UHGV virus genome: UHGV-1542943
Length of the DNA: 29,523 nt
Strand: one strand, 5' to 3'
Origin: a virus
Below, piece after piece: positions 3,959-26,647 of the stretch; position 1 is the first letter of the stretch, and each line of letters starts with the position of its first letter. The notes below the pieces were generated by a model. It saw only the letters and a list, made by a program, of their open reading frames with translations, was not told where the DNA came from and made no database searches. The position numbers and the translations under genes are program-made.

Positions 3959-4776
3959 ACGTACATATCCTGTTTGCGTGCCCACTCAGGGCGTTTAATA
4001 ATTTCCACGCCGCCCCATTCATCGCTGATGCGGCATTCGTGATAGGTATTCAGATCCCGGCGGAACAGAGCGTGCCCGGCATCGACATCCGGCGCATCCA
4101 GCCCGAACACGCGTACCGGATACCGACCACAATCAATGCTTTCGCTCACGGCAAGAAAGAAAAAACCATGCGGCTGACCAGTAACCCTCATTGCGCCTTC
4201 GCGGTACATTGCGTCCTGCACGTGGTAGCGGAATTCCTCGATGTGACGTGCAAAACGGTCCATATCTGCAACCTTTTTCACGTCGACGATCACGTTGTGC
4301 TCGTTCAGCCATTTGTCTGGACGAATTCGGCACAACTCACCCGTCTCTTCATCGTTCCAGTACATTGATGCTTCGCAGTAACCAGGTGCTTCCAGCATCC
4401 AGCGTGCCGCCGGGTGAGCCATTGCGCTATCACGCATCAGCTCCAGTTTCCGCCACTGCTCGGCATCAAGTACCGTAATCCCCATATCCGCTACATCACG
4501 AAGAAATGCTTCTTCGTCAGCTTTACCTTGTTTCGTCCGACGATCGAACTTCGGTGAAACAATGAAGCGTTTGTCGAATTCTCCAGGCTCCAGAAGCAGA
4601 CAGTGCAATGCGGTTCCCATATCCAGTGCAGACTTTTTCTCTTCGTCTTCTGGTGCTGCCTGAACCCATTTAAGAAGCGCCGGATTCTTGGCAACCATGT
4701 CCAGTTGCGACTTACTCACGCCGTCACCGGCGTGGTAGTCTTCGTTGCTGATGTCGAAATAAATTCCCGGTTTCAT
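3955..4776 (-). CDS. PD-(D/E)XK exonuclease (RecE C-terminal / YqaJ-like recombination exonuclease)
   Basis: 273 aa; motif ..CRIRPDKWLNEHNVIVDVKKV (D..D-x-K) plus upstream His and Glu residues typical of PDDEXK recombination exonucleases; adjacent to RecT. Confidence 0.75.
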   Translation of the reverse strand: MKPGIYFDISNEDYHAGDGVSKSQLDMVAKNPALLKWVQAAPEDEEKKSALDMGTALHCLLLEPGEFDKRFIVSPKFDRRTKQGKADEEAFLRDVADMGITVLDAEQWRKLELMRDSAMAHPAARWMLEAPGYCEASMYWNDEETGELCRIRPDKWLNEHNVIVDVKKVADMDRFARHIEEFRYHVQDAMYREGAMRVTGQPHGFFFLAVSESIDCGRYPVRVFGLDAPDVDAGHALFRRDLNTYHECRISDEWGGVEIIKRPEWARKQDMYV

Positions 4777-5380: not shown

Positions 5381-5965
5381 TTATTGTTTGTTTTTTTCGT
5401 TCTGGTTGATGACAAATTCAATGTAACTTTCGATCTTTGCTTTCTCGGTTTCGGGTAACAATGCGTAGCGCGAGCGATCATAGTTGATGGTCGCAGGGTC
5501 GTGCGGGTGAATCAGTAATTCATAGCCGTGACGCCCGAATGCGGATGCAACATTCTCCAGGGTGGAAATGGAAACGCTGACCTCATTGTTTAACAGGCGG
5601 CTGATTGTCACCTGGGCGACGCCGGATGCGCGGTGTAGTTTTCCCTGCGTTGAAAGGTCGCGGCTTTCGCTCATCCAGCGTTCCAGGTTGTGAGCCGCCA
5701 GCTGACCTATATCGCTCGGGCCGACAGGCTGAAAACCTTCCTGAGAAAGCGAGCGATCGATATCAAGCCAGTTACGGGGTTTATTGGCGGCAGCTTCAAT
5801 TTTTCGTGCAACCTGGTCGCCGATAACCTTCTTGCCAAGAGCCCAGCGGTTTACCAGATTTGCCTGAGTTCCAAGTTTTTCTGCCATCCGCGTCTGAACA
5901 CCATTGAATTCACGGTCGATCAAGTCGTTGAGATTTTGCCTGCGGACGTCCTGGATACTTTTCAT
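5381..5965 (-). CDS. Prophage repressor-like protein with two helix-turn-helix domains and no LexA-type peptidase domain
   Basis: 194 aa. First HTH around VQTRMAEKLGTQANLVNRWALGKKVIGDQVARKI; second XRE-like HTH around LHRASGVAQVTISRLLNNEVSVSISTLENVASAFG. No S24 Ser/Lys autocleavage module seen. Divergent from the Cro-like gene. Confidence 0.65.
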   Translation of the reverse strand: MKSIQDVRRQNLNDLIDREFNGVQTRMAEKLGTQANLVNRWALGKKVIGDQVARKIEAAANKPRNWLDIDRSLSQEGFQPVGPSDIGQLAAHNLERWMSESRDLSTQGKLHRASGVAQVTISRLLNNEVSVSISTLENVASAFGRHGYELLIHPHDPATINYDRSRYALLPETEKAKIESYIEFVINQNEKNKQ

Positions 5966-14631: not shown

Positions 14632-15479
14632 ATGTGCATGGGTAGCTCACCATCAGTGCCTGCAACACCAGAAGTTCAGGCAGCACCACAGGAGCAGGAT
14701 GCCGCCGTTGTTGATGCCCGCGACGAAGAAACACGTCGCCGTCGCGCTGCTGCTGGTCGTAGTTCTACGCTGCTTACCGTGCGGAATATACAATCAGTGT
14801 TTCTGGTGGTGCGTACTTCACCAGTAGTGATGTCGGCGCGCAACTACAGTTCCCTTATACCGGAACTGATCCTGATACTGGCGATGAGGTGTCAAAAGAA
14901 TTACGTTGCGACATTATTTCTGTAACCAGCAATACCGCTGTAGTGGTTCGTGCTAACAGGAACGTCCCGCCATCCCTCAGGAATGTGGCCACCACGAACT
15001 GGCAGATGGCGCGCCGGACATTTGGAGGCCTGTCTCATCTTGAAGGCCAGACCGTAAACATTCTCTCTGATGCGAACGTGGAACCACAGAAAGTAGTTTC
15101 CGGAGGTGCCGTCACGCTGGAATCTCCGGGGGCTGTAGTGCACATCGGCCTGCCAATAACTGCTGAATTCGAAACACTGGATATCAACATTAGCGGACAG
15201 GAAACGCTGCTGGACAAAAAACAGGTGATCCCGTCCGTTACTCTGGTTGTGAATGCCAGTCGCGGCATCTGGGCGACTACGCCCGGCGGTAAATGGTACG
15301 AATATCCACAGCGTGAATTCGAGTTCTACGATGATCCTGTTGATGATGCTACCGGAAAAGTAGAAGTGAAACTGGACAGTAACTGGGGCAAAAACGGACG
15401 TGTAAAAATCCGTCAGCTTGACCCGTTGCCGCTGTCTGTTCTTGCCGTTATTCCTCGCCTTACTGTTGGGGGATTCTGA
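14632..15479 (+). pseudogene. Virion structural gene with an apparent single-base frameshift near 14770-14780
   Basis: Frame starting at ATG 14632 (GGAG RBS) gives MCMGSSPSVPATPEVQ..AAAGRSSTLLT; a different frame is open from 14763 to the stop at 15477-15479 (..SGGAYFTSSDVGAQLQFPYTGTD..), and that stop overlaps the next gene's start. Confidence 0.4.
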
Positions 15480-22655: not shown

Positions 22656-23507
22656 ATGAAAAAAATAAATTTGTTTTTTGGCATAGTGCTTTCAATAGTC
22701 TCTGTAAATCCTACAGCTGCCAGTTCATTGCAATGCAATAAGGATAACTTTGATGCATGCAAAACGTGTGAACAATTATCAAAGGCTATCGACTTAAAAG
22801 AACCTAATCGTGGCGATTACTATAGAGGGGCTTTATGGAATGGGCTTTACGCCTCTTATGTAATTAATTGCCCTGTGGTTGCTGAGAAGTTACTGAGCCA
22901 TGGTGCTATACCATCATATGGCGGATATATGGGGTCTATGGGGGCGGTTCTGACAGGAAAATGGCCTCATAACAATGAATCAATAAATCTTTCATGGGCA
23001 GATTTGCTTATAAAACATGGATTTGATGTTAATAGGCATACGGGGAATTATAAATCAGCTACTGAAGTATGGGCTATAGATAAAAAACAGATTGAATATA
23101 AGTCAGTTTTTGACAAGTTAATTCAATCCAGCGAAGTAAAACCACTCGATCCTTCAAGAAATTTAGAATGGTGTGCGTCTGAAGGGTATCGCTCAGTTGT
23201 CGTTTATTCCCTTAACTCATGTATAGAAAATGCTATAAAACGTTTGGATGATGGTGTTTCTTCAGCGTCTGATATTTCATCAGCAGCCGTAAATTCCTGT
23301 ACTAGCGATGTAGAAAATTTCAATAAGCATTTGGTATGCAAAGCAGCTGTTAAAGAAAACTCTGATAAAGAGAGAAGCAACGTTTACCAGTTATTAACCA
23401 GTGATAGTCAAATGAATAAAAATGTTATTGATATGCTGAAGGAAAGAAATATTGAAACGGTTCTTGAATTTAGAGCTGAAAATCGATCAGCGAAAACTGC
23501 ACAGTGA
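22656..23507 (+). CDS. AT-rich cargo gene encoding a secreted/periplasmic Cys-containing protein (283 aa)
   Basis: Sec-type signal peptide MKKINLFFGIVLSIVSVNPTAAS; ATG 2 nt after the stop of the 1129-aa gene; markedly AT-rich; followed by a terminator. Confidence 0.6.
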   Translation: MKKINLFFGIVLSIVSVNPTAASSLQCNKDNFDACKTCEQLSKAIDLKEPNRGDYYRGALWNGLYASYVINCPVVAEKLLSHGAIPSYGGYMGSMGAVLTGKWPHNNESINLSWADLLIKHGFDVNRHTGNYKSATEVWAIDKKQIEYKSVFDKLIQSSEVKPLDPSRNLEWCASEGYRSVVVYSLNSCIENAIKRLDDGVSSASDISSAAVNSCTSDVENFNKHLVCKAAVKENSDKERSNVYQLLTSDSQMNKNVIDMLKERNIETVLEFRAENRSAKTAQ

Positions 23508-23575: not shown

Positions 23576-23600
23576 CACAAAAAAGCCCGCAACGCGGGCT
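23576..23600 (-). terminator. Rho-independent terminator for the minus-strand toxin operon
   Basis: GCCCGC-gttg-GCGGGC followed by TTTTTT on the minus strand, immediately after the stop at 23600-23602. Confidence 0.65.
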
Positions 23601-24137
23601 TATTCCTTCCATTTATCAGAAAAAAGATCTTCTTCTAAAGGCATTGGTTCTGTTTTTGTTTTCTGAAAGAATTGATAACTGATAGTGATTGCTGCCTCTT
23701 TAAACTCTTCTTGCTCAGTTATGTTGTGGGCATCTGCGTCAACAAAAAACATAACCAGCGCATCACGATTGTGATTTACCGAATAAACTAAAAAGCAATC
23801 ACTTGTTGGTATGCATTTTACTTGCACAGACGCTATATGCATCCCAAGATGATTTTTTACCAGTGTGTTTTTTATCACTATCTTCTGGAATATAGTCTTG
23901 GTTATCGACATGAGTATGCCTGACATTTAGTTTAAGCATTTCTGTCGGACGAGCAAATGCAGCATCTTTACCAAGAGATGGATGGTATCCCGTTTTCCAA
24001 TACTGGGTAAAGGCATCAGATACTTTCTTCAGCTCAAGATCAGATGCACAAAGGGCCGAGAAATTTTGCGTATGCAATACTCGACCCTTATATCTGACAA
24101 TTTGATTTTTATCATTCTGCGACGCAGACGAACTCAT
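23600..24137 (-). pseudogene. YafO-like toxin gene split across two overlapping frames (23799-24137 and 23600-23926)
   Basis: Frame A (MSSSASQ...LGKDAAFARPTEMLKLNVRHTHV) and frame B (..SDCFLVYSVNHNRDALVMFFV..) each resemble consecutive parts of E. coli YafO as recalled from memory (..FGRDALY...VAHIHL..., ..AHLVYCQGAFDEQAWLL..). The 128-nt overlap contains two T6/A6 homopolymer tracts (23853-23858, 23868-23873). Confidence 0.4.
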
Positions 24138-24291
24138 AATTTTCCTTATTGTTACGAGAATCAAAGAAAGCGCGGGATACGCGACTTGCGTGATCTTTTG
24201 TCATAGTAACTTTTACGTACTCTACGCTTCCATTGAAAGAACGTCTTGCGGCAGCTTGCGCTCTACGCATCTGCAATTTTTCGTTTCGCAT
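24112..24291 (-). CDS. Small basic protein (59 aa) upstream of and overlapping the toxin-like gene; candidate antitoxin
   Basis: MRNEKLQMRRAQAAARRSFNGSVEYVKVTMTKDHASRVSRAFF...; its stop overlaps the toxin start by 26 nt, and the toxin ATG has an AAGGAAAA RBS. Not similar to YafN by eye. Confidence 0.4.
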   Translation of the reverse strand: MRNEKLQMRRAQAAARRSFNGSVEYVKVTMTKDHASRVSRAFFDSRNNKENYEFVCVAE

Positions 24292-24438: not shown

Positions 24439-25149
24439 TCAGAAGAACCCAGCCTTGTCGTTGATGTACTCCGCGTGCGTCTGGATATCACGCAGGCATT
24501 TGCTCACACCGACGATGTAGCAGAACATGGTGGTCAGTTCCGCCGCCGCGCCCGATACGTCATGCCCGTCTTCCTGTAACTGGTTCAGCAAATTCATCAG
24601 CAGTGAGTTCTCCGTCAGGCCGAGAACACCAGACGGCGAGTGAATCAGGCTGCGGTAGCCGGGCTTCAGTGGGGCACTGTAGGTTTTGTTCTCTATCTTC
24701 ATCGCCTGCATCACTGCTGATGCTGTGGCGTTTGCAACCTGGTCGGCAACCATCTTTATGCGTTCTTCCTGCGGGAGCGAGTTTTTAATGTAACTTCCGG
24801 TGCGGCGGATCTGAGGAAGAACCTCACCTGTAACCCATTTACGAAAGCGGTAGGGGATAGTGCCTGGTGTCACTGCGTCGCGACAGCGGAGGATCAGTGT
24901 GTAGAGGCCTGACTCGGAGATGATGTTGATCTCTTTTACTCGGCTGTCAAAAATTGCACGATGTTCATGCCCTATGTTGAACATAGACCTTTCATCATCA
25001 TCCAGTTTTTCAAGTGCTTGGGTGACGTTTTGGATACGCAGCGCACTACAAACGTCTTGGGCTACAAACCATGGTTGGCCATCGATAATGATGGAACGGA
25101 TAGGGTTAACAGATTCAAATTTGAAGATGGCAGTTTGAGCATTAGCCAT
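24439..25149 (-). CDS. Bro-N domain antirepressor (Ant-like)
   Basis: N-terminal ..FKFESVNPIRSIIIDGQPWFVAQDVCSALRIQNVTQALEKLDDDE is a classic Bro-N signature; C-terminal antirepressor-type domain; ATG at 25149 with a GGAG RBS. Confidence 0.8.
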   Translation of the reverse strand: MANAQTAIFKFESVNPIRSIIIDGQPWFVAQDVCSALRIQNVTQALEKLDDDERSMFNIGHEHRAIFDSRVKEINIISESGLYTLILRCRDAVTPGTIPYRFRKWVTGEVLPQIRRTGSYIKNSLPQEERIKMVADQVANATASAVMQAMKIENKTYSAPLKPGYRSLIHSPSGVLGLTENSLLMNLLNQLQEDGHDVSGAAAELTTMFCYIVGVSKCLRDIQTHAEYINDKAGFF

Positions 25150-25418
25150 GGTGGTTATCTCCACTTAGTGATTTTAATCACCACCGCAACGCCAATTACT
25201 GGTGGTGAACTGGACAAGGTTGGCGTACCGGCCTAAGTGGTACCGGCGTCCTTTCGGACCCCTGCCCAGCCCACCATAATTCGGATATAGCTGTGCTTAA
25301 CGCATAAAAAAAACACGTCTGGCGTGGTATGCGCCACTTAGTAACTCGGGACGCCAATCCCGGCACTGGATTTTGCCAGTACCCGATTACTATGGCACAA
25401 GAGGAGTGCGATGTAAAT

Positions 25419-25433
25419 TTACCGCAAAGGTAA
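25419..25433. promoter_or_regulatory. Operator TTACCGCAAAGGTAA (perfect)
   Basis: In the 380-bp divergent intergenic region between the antirepressor and the 25547 gene. Confidence 0.6.
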
Positions 25434-25511
25434 TGATAAACGCGAAGAAATATTAAAATCAACCGTATTTGGTTGATTGCGTTTAACGCTTGATCACCTG
25501 AAAGCAAGATA

Positions 25512-25526
25512 TTACCTTTAAGGTAA
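25512..25526. promoter_or_regulatory. Operator TTACCTTTAAGGTAA (perfect)
   Basis: 20 bp upstream of the ATG at 25547. Confidence 0.6.
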
Positions 25527-25546
25527 TGTTATTGTGAGGAAAAGCA

Positions 25547-26275
25547 ATGGAAGTTTTCTGGATAGTTGTTGGTGTGGTTGCGGTGATTATTTACGTTATC
25601 AACCAGAACAAGACTAAGATCTCTGATCGTACGGTCGTTAATCATAACAAAACGATAAAGACCGAAGATGGGGAGATAACGATTAATCGTACACAGGTGA
25701 TAGAACACACCTCTACTCAGTTTCAAAAAACTGGAGGTAATGCGCCTAATATTTCCGCACCTCCTGCTTATGATAGTGCGGTAATCCAGACATATTATAA
25801 ACAGCAGGAGTTAGCAAAAGAGAGGCAACTGATTCAGCCAAAGCCGTTTACAGCTGAGCTTCCACCTGGAGTGTCAACGCGTCCGGCATATCATGGAAGA
25901 TTCCCTGGTGATGACATATCGTCTCAGTCATCTAAAAAAGCACCTCAGGCAGTATCAGAGCCAGCAAGAATACCTTCTGTATCGCCGCCAAAAGAAGAAT
26001 CAGCTAACAGAGTTTCAAGTGGTAGCAAGCAGTGCTTGCGATGCAGAATAAACCTACCATATGAAAAATTCAGGAAATCGTCAAAAAATCCAGATGGATT
26101 GACTAAGTGGTGTGCAAGGTGTCTCGATGGCCCAAAGAATACACGCCATATGAAGTGGTGCCCAATTTGTAATGTCCGCAGAAAACGAACCAGCTTTTAC
26201 CCTAATAATCAAAATGCGGACGGATTAATGGCATGGTGCAAAACGTGCTGGGATGAGCACAAAGCGAAACGATAG
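25547..26275 (+). CDS. Membrane-anchored protein with two C-terminal C4 zinc-ribbon-like units
   Basis: N-terminal TM helix MEVFWIVVGVVAVIIYVI, low-complexity linker, then CLRC..(PDGLTKW)CARC..(KW)CPIC..(DGLMAW)CKTC; GAGG RBS. Confidence 0.55.
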   Translation: MEVFWIVVGVVAVIIYVINQNKTKISDRTVVNHNKTIKTEDGEITINRTQVIEHTSTQFQKTGGNAPNISAPPAYDSAVIQTYYKQQELAKERQLIQPKPFTAELPPGVSTRPAYHGRFPGDDISSQSSKKAPQAVSEPARIPSVSPPKEESANRVSSGSKQCLRCRINLPYEKFRKSSKNPDGLTKWCARCLDGPKNTRHMKWCPICNVRRKRTSFYPNNQNADGLMAWCKTCWDEHKAKR

Positions 26276-26297
26276 GCCGCTCTTGCGGCCTTTAAAT
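26275..26297 (+). terminator. Hairpin terminator between convergent genes
   Basis: GGCCGC-tctt-GCGGCC followed by TTTAAATTT. Confidence 0.55.
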
Positions 26298-26570
26298 TTA
26301 CCGGGTTTGTTTTCGTAATTGTTCGGCACAATAGTCGAGATGTGTTTGCAGATCCTGCATAGACATCTGTGAGCTGGTGACGTAGTTAATCAGTGCAGTC
26401 AGTTCGGCAAGTGGGCCATCGACATTAAATCCATCCTTATCGAGATCCCGGAGTAATTTCATCAAGTGCGATCCCTCCACCAGTGACCTGACGCCTCCCG
26501 GCGTGTGAATCCTTTCGGTAAATCCGTCTTCCAGTGGATAGTGATACTGCTGCATCTTAATCTTCTCCAT
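26298..26570 (-). CDS. Stand-alone paralog of the antirepressor C-terminal domain (85-90 aa)
   Basis: ..RIHTPGGVRSLVEGSHLMKLLRDLDKDGFNVDGPLAELTALINYV..DLQTHLDY aligns with Ant ..LIHSPSGVLGLTENSLLMNLLNQLQEDGHDVSGAAAELTTMFCYI..DIQTHAEY at roughly 45% identity by eye. ATG at 26555 has a GGAGAAG RBS. Confidence 0.55.
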   Translation of the reverse strand: MEKIKMQQYHYPLEDGFTERIHTPGGVRSLVEGSHLMKLLRDLDKDGFNVDGPLAELTALINYVTSSQMSMQDLQTHLDYCAEQLRKQTR

Positions 26571-26632
26571 GCAATAACTGTATATTTATACAGTATCAAA
26601 TAATTTGTTTGCTATCCAGCACGTTTTGCAAA

Positions 26633-26647
26633 TTACCTGAAAGGTAA
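26633..26647. promoter_or_regulatory. Operator TTACCTGAAAGGTAA (perfect) upstream of the tailspike gene
   Basis: Perfect palindrome in the divergent region; a GGTAAT half-site lies at 26689. Confidence 0.6.

Follow-up and report, generated by a model that had tools for sequence, protein, structure and literature searches.

We addressed the question of why a prophage should carry, next to a gene for a Bro-N antirepressor, a short gene whose product resembles the C-terminal end of that same antirepressor. The stretch of DNA analysed (29,523 nucleotides, hereafter the window) is a defective Escherichia coli prophage of the epsilon15/phiV10 group, genus Uetakevirus. Its head genes are deleted, and a YafO-like toxin gene close to the locus is frameshifted. 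In the reading that we favour, to which we assign a probability of about 0.7, the prophage would combine an SPC32H-type repressor (Rep) with two antirepressors which contain the same Rep-binding domain (Ant), each of them wired to a different input. This reading is built on homologies, on regulatory elements, on complementarity and co-variation in an RNA leader, on the co-occurrence of Ant with Rep and on the shuffling of N-terminal domains.

The initial annotation had stated that the short ORF is similar to the C-terminus of the antirepressor and lacks Bro-N, and a formal pairwise alignment bears this out. When the 241-aa ORF (24439-25164) and the 90-aa ORF (26298-26570) are compared by BLASTP, residues 156-233 of the former align without gaps with residues 3-80 of the latter, with 33 identities out of 78 positions (42%) and an E value of 8e-21, that is, over a homologous domain of about 80 residues. 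Both products match PHROG 450 (E 3e-48 for the short one). Bro-N (PF02498) was found by Pfam at residues 22-117 of the long protein (E 1e-19; 71.4 bits, the cut-off being 25.6) and was not found by Pfam in the 90-aa product. No Pfam family exists for the Ant domain; Pfam matches to DUF724 and Stc1 were below threshold and were disregarded. Residues 160-236 of the Bro-N protein match the PDB chain 5D50_E (E 1.3e-13), and 21 positions are invariant across the clade of small Ant proteins and the clade of Bro-type Ant domains.

The short gene (ant, minus strand) most likely starts at the ATG at 26555 and extends over 26298-26555, which results in a protein of 85 aa (MQQYHYP...); homologs have 85-86 aa. 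The upstream ATG at 26570, from which the 90-aa ORF was read, is in frame because of an extra A in the window. The protein matches 5D50_E, the "Anti-repressor protein" chain, with an E value of 4e-47 over residues 7-89, and is about 88% identical to the product of SPC32H ant (tblastn). By homology, its orthologs are the small antirepressor Ant of Salmonella phage SPC32H, which has been crystallised (PDB 5D50), epsilon15 gp19 and phiV10 p24; it is not a truncated copy. The term "truncated paralog" used in the initial annotation has to be inverted: the canonical form is the stand-alone protein, encoded in every one of the 34 phage records in which the domain occurs, and it is the Bro-N protein that is a fusion bearing the module. 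The suggestion that the short protein could titrate the repressor describes essentially the role expected for it. The SPC32H protein assembles into a tetramer, which takes up two dimers of Rep and dismantles the Rep tetramer, the form that binds DNA (PMC9638917, PMC9986798). As in SPC32H, the gene adjoins the tailspike gene and is divergent from it.

A putative LexA (SOS) box, CTGTATATTTATACAG (26578-26593), precedes the ant ATG by 23 nt; it is one of two exact matches to CTGT-N8-ACAG in the window. A LexA box occupies the equivalent place in six relatives (SPC32H, phiV10, TL-2011b, ZX5, L005 and Tyrion), and, with one mismatch, in a Klebsiella phage. In the promoter scan the small ant gene lacked a strong sigma-70 match, and its promoter is placed solely by where the LexA box lies. 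A spurious or unexpressed short ORF was ruled out by the 88% identity of its product to a crystallised and functionally studied protein, together with the conserved LexA box.

The presumed common target of both proteins is Rep, encoded at 5381-5965 (minus strand), with two predicted HTH regions and a predicted C-terminal domain for Ant binding and tetramerisation. Rep matches the "Repressor" chain 5D50_A (E 4e-42) and 5D4Z_A (E 4e-20). Only HTH families were detected by Pfam in Rep; the autocleavage domain Peptidase_S24 was not found. Between the window and SPC32H, the small Ant proteins share 88% identity, whereas the Rep C-terminal domains share only about 40%; how well an Ant fits a Rep can therefore not simply be read from sequence identity.

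The palindrome TTACC-N5-GGTAA, with at most one mismatch, occurs 16 times in the window (0.49 expected). Not one of 100 shuffled sequences reached 16 copies, which excludes chance. Pairs of palindromes flank rep (5247/5309 and 6021/6069), another copy, TTACCTGAAAGGTAA (26633-26647), is located between ant and the tailspike gene, and TTACCTTTAAGGTAA (25512-25526) lies between the leader of the Bro-N ant gene and a divergent gene (25547-26275). The copy at 26633 has a counterpart at the equivalent position in SPC32H (20013) and in Klebsiella phi13.3 (32954). The palindromes are probably Rep operators, an assignment made because they are positioned around rep in three phages. The idea that they are mere promoter elements was considered and set aside. 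It had been proposed that each of the two antirepressor genes has its own operator. A palindrome is indeed found near both; the same palindrome is, nevertheless, present prophage-wide, and what is specific to each gene is the LexA box for one and a leader encoding isrK and C4 RNAs for the other, elements that were absent from the initial annotation.

For the long gene (minus strand), the likeliest start is the ATG at 25149, preceded nine nt upstream by GGAG. The gene then spans 24439-25149 and encodes 236 aa, with Bro-N at about residues 17-112 and the Ant-type domain at about residues 151-231. Full-length homologs of 228-236 aa, at 70-100% identity, are found in Escherichia, Salmonella, Citrobacter, Enterobacter, Leclercia and Atlantibacter. 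We read the protein as a second antirepressor, with Ant as its C-terminal module, and infer that this domain binds the Rep of the prophage. The 42% identity to the small Ant leaves room for a difference in specificity. In an AlphaFold model computed from a 15-sequence alignment, the Bro-N half is confident and the C-terminal half is helical and poor (pLDDT 50-70); with a model of that quality in the C-terminal half, Foldseek returned nothing from the PDB at E <= 0.001, and 5D50 was not in the best 50. The Bro-N half of the model has a weak likeness to SKI/Dachshund DNA-binding domains (probability up to 0.97, E 0.3).

Functional data are available for a homolog. ORF4 of phage ZX5 is 81% identical to the Bro-N::Ant protein overall and 100% identical in the C-terminal Ant domain. 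When ORF4 was overexpressed from a plasmid, the lysogen count decreased from 1e9 to 1e6 and rep transcription dropped by 75% (PMC9782041). In that study ORF4 was taken as the sole antirepressor, only its Bro-N domain was noted, and the adjacent small Ant was listed as a "hypothetical protein" (PMC9782041).

The distribution of Ant is that of a portable module. The 34 phage records in which Ant occurs all belong to the 38 that encode a homologous Rep C-terminal domain, and in the SPC32H/epsilon15 lineage only the stand-alone form occurs. Elsewhere the module is fused behind Bro-N, AntA, pRha or ORF6N N-terminal domains. These fused forms were recovered only by an exhaustive profile search; a word-index protein search with the short ORF gave close stand-alone homologs only. 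The Bro-N::Ant proteins of the window and of TL-2011b are 65% identical in the Bro-N half and 100% identical in the Ant half, and another Uetakevirus-like prophage has an AntA version in the same slot, with a C-terminal stretch that is 96-100% identical. TL-2011b encodes, in addition, a third copy of the Ant domain, gp42 (93% identical), within an Arc/sar module. Both parts are common: of 5426 complete E. coli genomes, 529 contain the small ant region and 470 contain DNA for the Bro-type Ant domain.

Upstream of the Bro-N ant gene, and on the same minus strand, two RNAs are predicted by Rfam. A C4-type antisense RNA (RF01695; 66.0 bits, gathering score 45, E 6e-11) maps at 25198-25281, and an isrK-type RNA (RF01394; 58.6 bits, gathering score 50), which has its own terminator and ends in a U-run, at 25308-25382. 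In the minimum free energy fold of C4, the segments a' (ACGCCAA, 25226-25220, single-stranded) and b' (CCACUUAG, 25240-25233, in a loop) are unpaired. Segment a' is complementary to site a2 (UUGGCGU, 25189-25195), and b' to site b2 (CUAAGUGG, 25168-25161, within a feature spanning 25159-25168), which overlaps the Shine-Dalgarno sequence GGAG (25162-25159) of the Bro-N ant gene. Both target sequences are repeated within isrK as candidate decoys, a1 (UUGGCGU, 25357-25351) and b1 (CUAAGUGG, 25341-25334). The promoter scan predicts an isrK promoter at 25389-25433, with a -35 element TTTACA (25417-25412) and a -10 element CATAGT (25394-25389); the palindrome TTACCGCAAAGGTAA (25419-25433) abuts the -35 element. 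The block GGTAAATTTACA...CATAGT is kept in relatives whose upstream flanks differ, the phiV10 version being GGTAAATATA.

Both C4 and isrK exceed their gathering scores in Rfam, not only in the window but also in six related loci, in all six of which C4 is upstream of the second ant gene. The C4 segments, the downstream targets and the isrK decoys co-vary three ways, a1 with a' and b1 with b'; the five lineages between them show two types of a and three of b. A single ORF crosses C4, of 14 codons in the window, while in TL-2011b the corresponding orf45-like frame has 35; an in-frame UAG, brought in by the b' variant, shortens the window frame, and translational coupling to the antirepressor gene is therefore unlikely. 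An icd-like upstream ORF that would be the direct target of C4 and be coupled to ant was not found in the window, where b2 overlaps ant's own Shine-Dalgarno sequence.

That compensatory changes are kept in the RNA leader bears on whether the Bro-N::Ant gene matters at all. It might be a decaying, functionless passenger of recombination in the accessory region; the gene is frameshifted in phiV10 (within the Ant domain) and in the O157 typing phages 9 and 10, and the window prophage is itself defective. As phiV10 is viable with the frameshifted gene, the second antirepressor is dispensable. A functionless passenger is, however, hard to reconcile with these compensatory changes, with full-length homologs in six genera, with the presence of its Ant domain in 470 E. 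coli genomes and with the overexpression phenotype in ZX5, and we consider it very improbable.

The Bro-N::Ant protein might also spare its own Rep and strike instead, in superinfection only, at the repressor of other resident prophages that are heteroimmune, thus serving as an anti-immunity weapon, the two Ant domains having diverged in target. This would be in line with the modest identity between both domains, with the label "putative anti-immunity protein" given by the phiV10 annotators, and with the location of the gene in a mosaic accessory region and its dispensability in phiV10; C4 types that differ among phages whose Rep C-terminal domains are 98-100% identical would also fit competition between phages. 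On the other hand, in the phage collection the Bro-type Ant domain is found only in genomes which encode an SPC32H-type Rep, it diverges roughly in step with the Rep C-terminal domain (100/100, 77/73 and 53/44%), and ZX5 ORF4 altered the lysogeny of ZX5 itself. We regard a different target as unlikely, and a common Rep target as the better account.

With Rep as the common target, the two genes would work as follows. The small Ant would be the canonical SOS sensor: LexA would occupy the box at 26578-26593, DNA damage would remove it, and the small Ant then made would, if it acts like the SPC32H ortholog to which it is 88% identical, bind the C-terminal domain of Rep and split the tetramer that binds DNA into Rep dimers. 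The Bro-N::Ant protein would bring its paralogous Ant domain to the same kind of Rep. Its mRNA would start at the promoter abutted by the probable Rep operator and run through isrK and C4. Pairing of a' and b' with a2 and b2 would keep translation of the Bro-N ant gene blocked, since b2 covers its Shine-Dalgarno sequence, following the logic of P1/P7 immI; the isrK decoys a1 and b1 could relieve the C4 block, as in the case of Gifsy-1 IsrK and AnrP. The second antirepressor would probably serve to bias the lysis-lysogeny decision upon infection, to reinforce induction once Rep is lifted, and to overcome related resident prophages of differing C4 specificity. With one antirepressor under SOS control and the other under control of an antisense RNA, the prophage may therefore switch off one repressor on two signals.

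Two proteins with the same domain might instead assemble into mixed oligomers in which one modulates the other; the initial annotation had proposed that the short protein is a dominant-negative partner that sets the induction threshold, or an anti-antirepressor. SPC32H Ant acts as a tetramer (PMC9638917), two paralogous copies of the domain per cell could in principle co-assemble, and the 21 invariant positions could include oligomer contacts. The ortholog of the short protein is, however, a demonstrated antirepressor which acts alone, in a phage that has no Bro-N gene, and the sequences hold no pointer to antagonism; the dominant-negative and anti-antirepressor proposals are at odds with this behaviour and found no positive evidence. 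Co-expression of both antirepressors is moreover not assured, because the genes answer different signals (LexA or C4/IsrK). Such modulation is in our opinion improbable, even more so than a different target, and the reading of two antirepressors acting on Rep through separate inputs is retained.

A broader view, which we put forward tentatively and hold slightly below even odds, is that Ant may be a portable anti-Rep "warhead" which epsilon15-like phages mount on varied N-terminal domains (Bro-N, AntA, pRha, ORF6N) and place behind three classic circuits, LexA, P1-type c4/IsrK and P22-type Arc/sar. Rep would then integrate two or three independent signals, and the diversifying C4 specificities would form an RNA-based layer of immunity between phages with the same Rep. 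More speculatively, the small and fused Ant forms might co-assemble as mixed tetramers that tune the induction threshold.

The individual parts of the system are already known; a description of the shared domain and of its multi-input wiring appears to be missing from the searchable literature. The domain connects two apparently unlinked literatures, that of the structurally solved small Ant of SPC32H and that of the "Bro-N anti-repressor" of E. coli Uetakeviruses (ZX5), and about 10% of complete E. coli genomes encode a protein, still annotated as "hypothetical", which can now be named and assigned a function. The locus offers a compact natural case of one repressor and several antirepressors with a common binding module and separate inputs, DNA damage and an RNA-based immunity circuit, and it makes testable why some temperate phages have more than one antirepressor. 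A further suggestion is that a defective prophage of this sort can still induce related ones in trans.

With respect to known systems, the closest is the Rep-Ant antirepression of SPC32H, reportedly described by Kim and Ryu (2013, J Virol) and Kim et al. (2016, PNAS; PDB 5D4Z and 5D50). The window shares with it the small Ant (88% identical) in the same tailspike-adjacent place, the LexA box directly upstream, a homologous Rep without autocleavage domain and the same arrangement of TTACC-N5-GGTAA around rep. Unlike SPC32H, which has the small Ant only, the window and most of its E. coli relatives add a second Ant-domain gene, and the Rep C-terminal domains share only some 40% identity. Phage P22 immI (arc - sar - ant) finds its parallel in the close relative TL-2011b, where gp42 lies behind an Arc-like repressor and a sar RNA, a module absent from the window.

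The leader resembles immI of phages P1 and P7 (c4 antisense RNA - icd - ant): a C4-family RNA comes from the ant leader, its a' and b' segments are complementary to a2/b2 downstream and to a1/b1 upstream, and the specificity variants co-vary, as P1 versus P7. In contrast to P1/P7, where the target is the ribosome-binding site of the upstream icd gene, the predicted target in the window is that of ant itself; the antirepressor is Bro-N::Ant, unrelated to P1 Ant1/2, and the repressor is an SPC32H-type Rep, not P1 C1. The isrK - orf45 - anrP locus of Gifsy-1 (Hershko-Shalev et al., 2016; PMC4825925) is also similar, as an isrK RNA with its own terminator is followed by read-through into a leader with a processed RNA and then by an antirepressor-like gene that is transcribed yet translationally silent; it differs in that the orf45-like frame of the window is cut short and antQ is absent nearby. 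Finally, in ZX5 both partners recur, since ORF4 is the direct homolog of the Bro-N::Ant protein and the C-terminal domain of ZX5 Rep is identical to that of the window.

The initial annotation had noted that the short ORF (26298-26570, minus strand, 90 aa) resembles the C-terminal part of the long ORF (24439-25164, minus strand, 241 aa) and lacks its Bro-N domain, and both points were borne out. When a formal pairwise BLASTP alignment of the two proteins was run, residues 156-233 of the long ORF and 3-80 of the short ORF shared 33/78 identities (42%) without gaps (E = 8e-21), and Pfam places a Bro-N domain in the long protein only. In PHROGs, a single family, phrog_450 ("unknown function"), covers both the short protein and the C-terminal part of the long protein. 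Ribosome-binding sites and homolog lengths point to ATG 25149 (236 aa) as the likely true start of the long gene and to ATG 26555 (85 aa) as that of the short gene.

The short ORF had also been taken for a truncated paralog, a reading that does not hold. Against PDB 5D50 chain E ("Anti-repressor protein") its product scores E = 4e-47, and it shares 88% identity with Ant of Salmonella phage SPC32H; epsilon15 gp19 and phiV10 p24 are its counterparts. The gene is divergent from the tailspike gene, and in SPC32H ant is located in the equivalent position, with the tailspike gene on one side and the gene of a small membrane protein on the other. The ant ATG is preceded at a distance of 23 nt by a perfectly matching LexA box, CTGTATATTTATACAG (26578-26593). 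The box is likewise placed in SPC32H, phiV10, TL-2011b, ZX5, Tyrion and the prophage locus L005, and the Klebsiella relative phi13.3 carries a version with one mismatch. Kim and Ryu reportedly found in 2013 that Rep is left uncleaved in the SOS response and that ant is under LexA repression. The window also encodes Rep (5381-5965, minus strand), which matches 5D50 chain A ("Repressor", E = 4e-42) and in which Pfam detects HTH domains only and no S24 peptidase domain. Homology to and shared position with SPC32H Ant, the LexA box and the presence of Rep in the window identify the short ORF, on sequence grounds, as a known, canonical SOS-controlled antirepressor, not a truncated copy. [quoted passage not shown] In the phage collection, 38 records encode a homolog of the Rep C-terminal domain, and they include all 34 records that have an Ant domain; 22 of these 34 hold at least two Ant-domain genes.

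The Ant domain is not confined to the small protein: residues 160-236 of the long protein match 5D50 chain E (E = 1.3e-13). When 1.84 billion representative proteins were searched exhaustively with a profile, only 60 Ant-domain proteins were retrieved at E <= 0.001, most of them stand-alone (80-96 aa). In the longer matches the domain is C-terminal and follows one of four N-terminal domains: Bro-N (P0124, P0147, P0174), AntA (P0122), Phage_pRha (P0131, P0133, P0173) or ORF6N (P0175). The AntA protein P0122 shares all of its C-terminal 80 residues with the Bro-N protein of the window, and its gene occupies the equivalent slot of another Uetakevirus-like prophage, beside an identical small Ant. 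The Bro-N proteins of the window and TL-2011b are 65% identical in the Bro-N half and 100% in the Ant half. TL-2011b carries a third Ant-domain copy, gp42, with a C-terminus 93% identical to the window's Bro-type domain. These varied N-terminal fusions, with identical C-termini where N-termini differ, argue that the Ant domain is a mobile C-terminal module with exchangeable N-terminal domains. In the TL-2011b sequence (1511-2695 and 1682-1749), gp42 comes after a sar antisense RNA (Rfam RF00262) and a repressor resembling Arc, and the whole is a P22 immI-type module; HEMP4 has three Ant-domain places as well. In ZX5, the Ant domain of the Bro-N protein ORF4 is 100% identical to the window's, as is the Rep C-terminal domain. 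Overexpression of ORF4 lowered the lysogen count from 1e9 to 1e6 and rep transcription by 75%; that study noted only the Bro-N domain of ORF4 and left the small Ant as a hypothetical protein (PMC9782041).

The initial annotation had further assigned each ant gene its own operator. TTACC-N5-GGTAA palindromes do lie near these genes, at 25419 and 25512 in the Bro-N ant leader and at 26633 between small ant and the tailspike gene, but the same palindrome occurs 16 times in the window with at most one mismatch, where 0.49 would be expected, a count that none of the shuffles attained. The remaining copies are at 189, 5247, 5309, 6021, 6069, 6406, 8352, 8414, 10990, 11008, 13910, 14527 and 24352. 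Pairs flank rep on both sides (5247/5309 and 6021/6069), others stand singly or paired ahead of transcription units, terminase genes included, and none of the 16 was clearly seen inside a well-supported gene. Enrichment and placement are the same in SPC32H (18 copies) and the Klebsiella relative (11 copies). The copy at 25419 abuts the -35 element of the predicted isrK promoter and is conserved even where its flanks differ. Judged by position, the palindromes are probably Rep operators, and one repressor may act directly on most prophage promoters. A second exact CTGT-N8-ACAG match (CTGTACTGGTTTACAG, 13997-14012) lies with the palindrome at 13910 upstream of an accessory gene (13087-13977, minus strand, phrog_4780), itself flanked by the gene for the large terminase and one for a tRNA (14131-14204, tRNA-Arg in the annotation of matching genomes); this may be a further SOS- or Rep-controlled unit.

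Rfam detected two RNAs ahead of the Bro-N ant gene, both on the strand of that gene: isrK (25308-25382, minus strand, 58.6 bits, gathering score 50) and C4 antisense RNA (25198-25281, minus strand, 66.0 bits, gathering score 45). Both also lie ahead of the second ant gene in TL-2011b, phiV10, ZX5, the AntA variant, Tyrion and the Klebsiella phage. Two C4 segments are unpaired in the minimum-free-energy fold. The complement of loop b' (CCACUUAG) is CUAAGUGG, a sequence overlapping the GGAG in the ribosome-binding site of ant, and that of segment a' (ACGCCAA) is UUGGCGU directly downstream of C4; isrK repeats both targets, as a1 and b1. Antisense segments, a1/b1 and the downstream targets a2/b2 co-vary between lineages. 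The a-type is ACGCCAA with UUGGCGU in the window and TL-2011b, and AGACCAA with UUGGUCU in L005, Tyrion and Klebsiella. For the b-type, the window and L005 share CCACUUAG with CUAAGUGG, TL-2011b, phiV10 and ZX5 have CCUUUUAG with CUAAAAGG, and Tyrion and Klebsiella CCUUUGUAG with CUACAAAGG, pairing at Tyrion b1 being kept by a single G-U pair. The ORF spanning C4, counterpart of Gifsy-1 orf45, has 35 codons in TL-2011b (4588-4695, minus strand) and only 14 in the window (25236-25277, minus strand), because the b' variant creates an in-frame UAG; with so short an ORF, C4 most likely acts by directly blocking the ribosome-binding site of ant. This ORF is annotated "Ash family" in ZX5. The b-types differ between phages whose Rep C-terminal domains are 98-100% identical, consistent with an RNA-based layer of immunity among related phages.

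As a prophage, the window belongs to the epsilon15/phiV10 group (genus Uetakevirus), with TL-2011b as nearest phage relative (96% identity across 90% of the region). Compared with Tyrion and SPC32H, it lacks about 7.3 kb at about 14778-14805: the genes for portal, protease and major head protein and three quarters of the gene for the gp13-like tail protein. Of this tail protein, ORF 14889-15479 retains just the C-terminal 196 aa. The junction is not spanned by any complete E. coli genome. Both ant genes are intact even though the prophage is defective. Several accessory genes were also observed. Between the ant genes, 25547-26275 (plus strand) encodes a 242-aa protein that has a membrane helix in its N-terminal part and two zinc-ribbon-like repeats in its C-terminal part (phrog_6762; weak matches to endonuclease VII and Lar-like); it is missing in phiV10 and ZX5 and only a misc_feature in TL-2011b. 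Compared with TL-2011b gp44, a YafO-like toxin gene (23600-24291, minus strand) has lost 8 bp, a deletion that splits it into two overlapping ORFs; the 59-aa ORF directly upstream (24112-24291, phrog_6685) could encode its antitoxin. Inserted after the last virion protein gene, 22656-23507 (plus strand) encodes 283 aa with a signal-peptide-like N-terminus (phrog_6118) and no Pfam match; SPC32H has only a 46-aa membrane protein there.

In the model that we propose, release of LexA would allow small Ant to be made and to take Rep off DNA. The Bro-N::Ant protein, a putative Rep binder, would bring the paralogous domain under separate control, through a promoter adjoining a probable Rep site and through C4 and IsrK, which would gate its translation. 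The protein might act on infection, before C4 accumulates, reinforce induction once Rep is lifted, or work against resident relatives of a different C4 type. Among the weak points of the model, the Bro-N ant gene is broken in phiV10 and hence dispensable, and small Ant is far more conserved between the window and SPC32H (88%) than the Rep domain that it is said to bind (40%): either the two proteins make contact through a small conserved patch, or the target range of Ant is broad.

The small ant region is present in 529/5426 complete E. coli genomes, annotated as "hypothetical protein" among the records listed, and Bro-type Ant-domain DNA in 470/5426. In the searchable literature we found no description of the shared domain, of its shuffling or of the two- or three-input wiring; each component is of a known kind. 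Apart from the shortened ORF across C4, the architecture of the isrK/C4/Bro-N ant leader is that of the P1/P7 immI region, reportedly described by Citron and Schuster in 1990. The leader also resembles the Gifsy-1 isrK-orf45-anrP locus, where antirepressor mRNA is made and stays untranslated until short IsrK acts in trans (PMC4825925).
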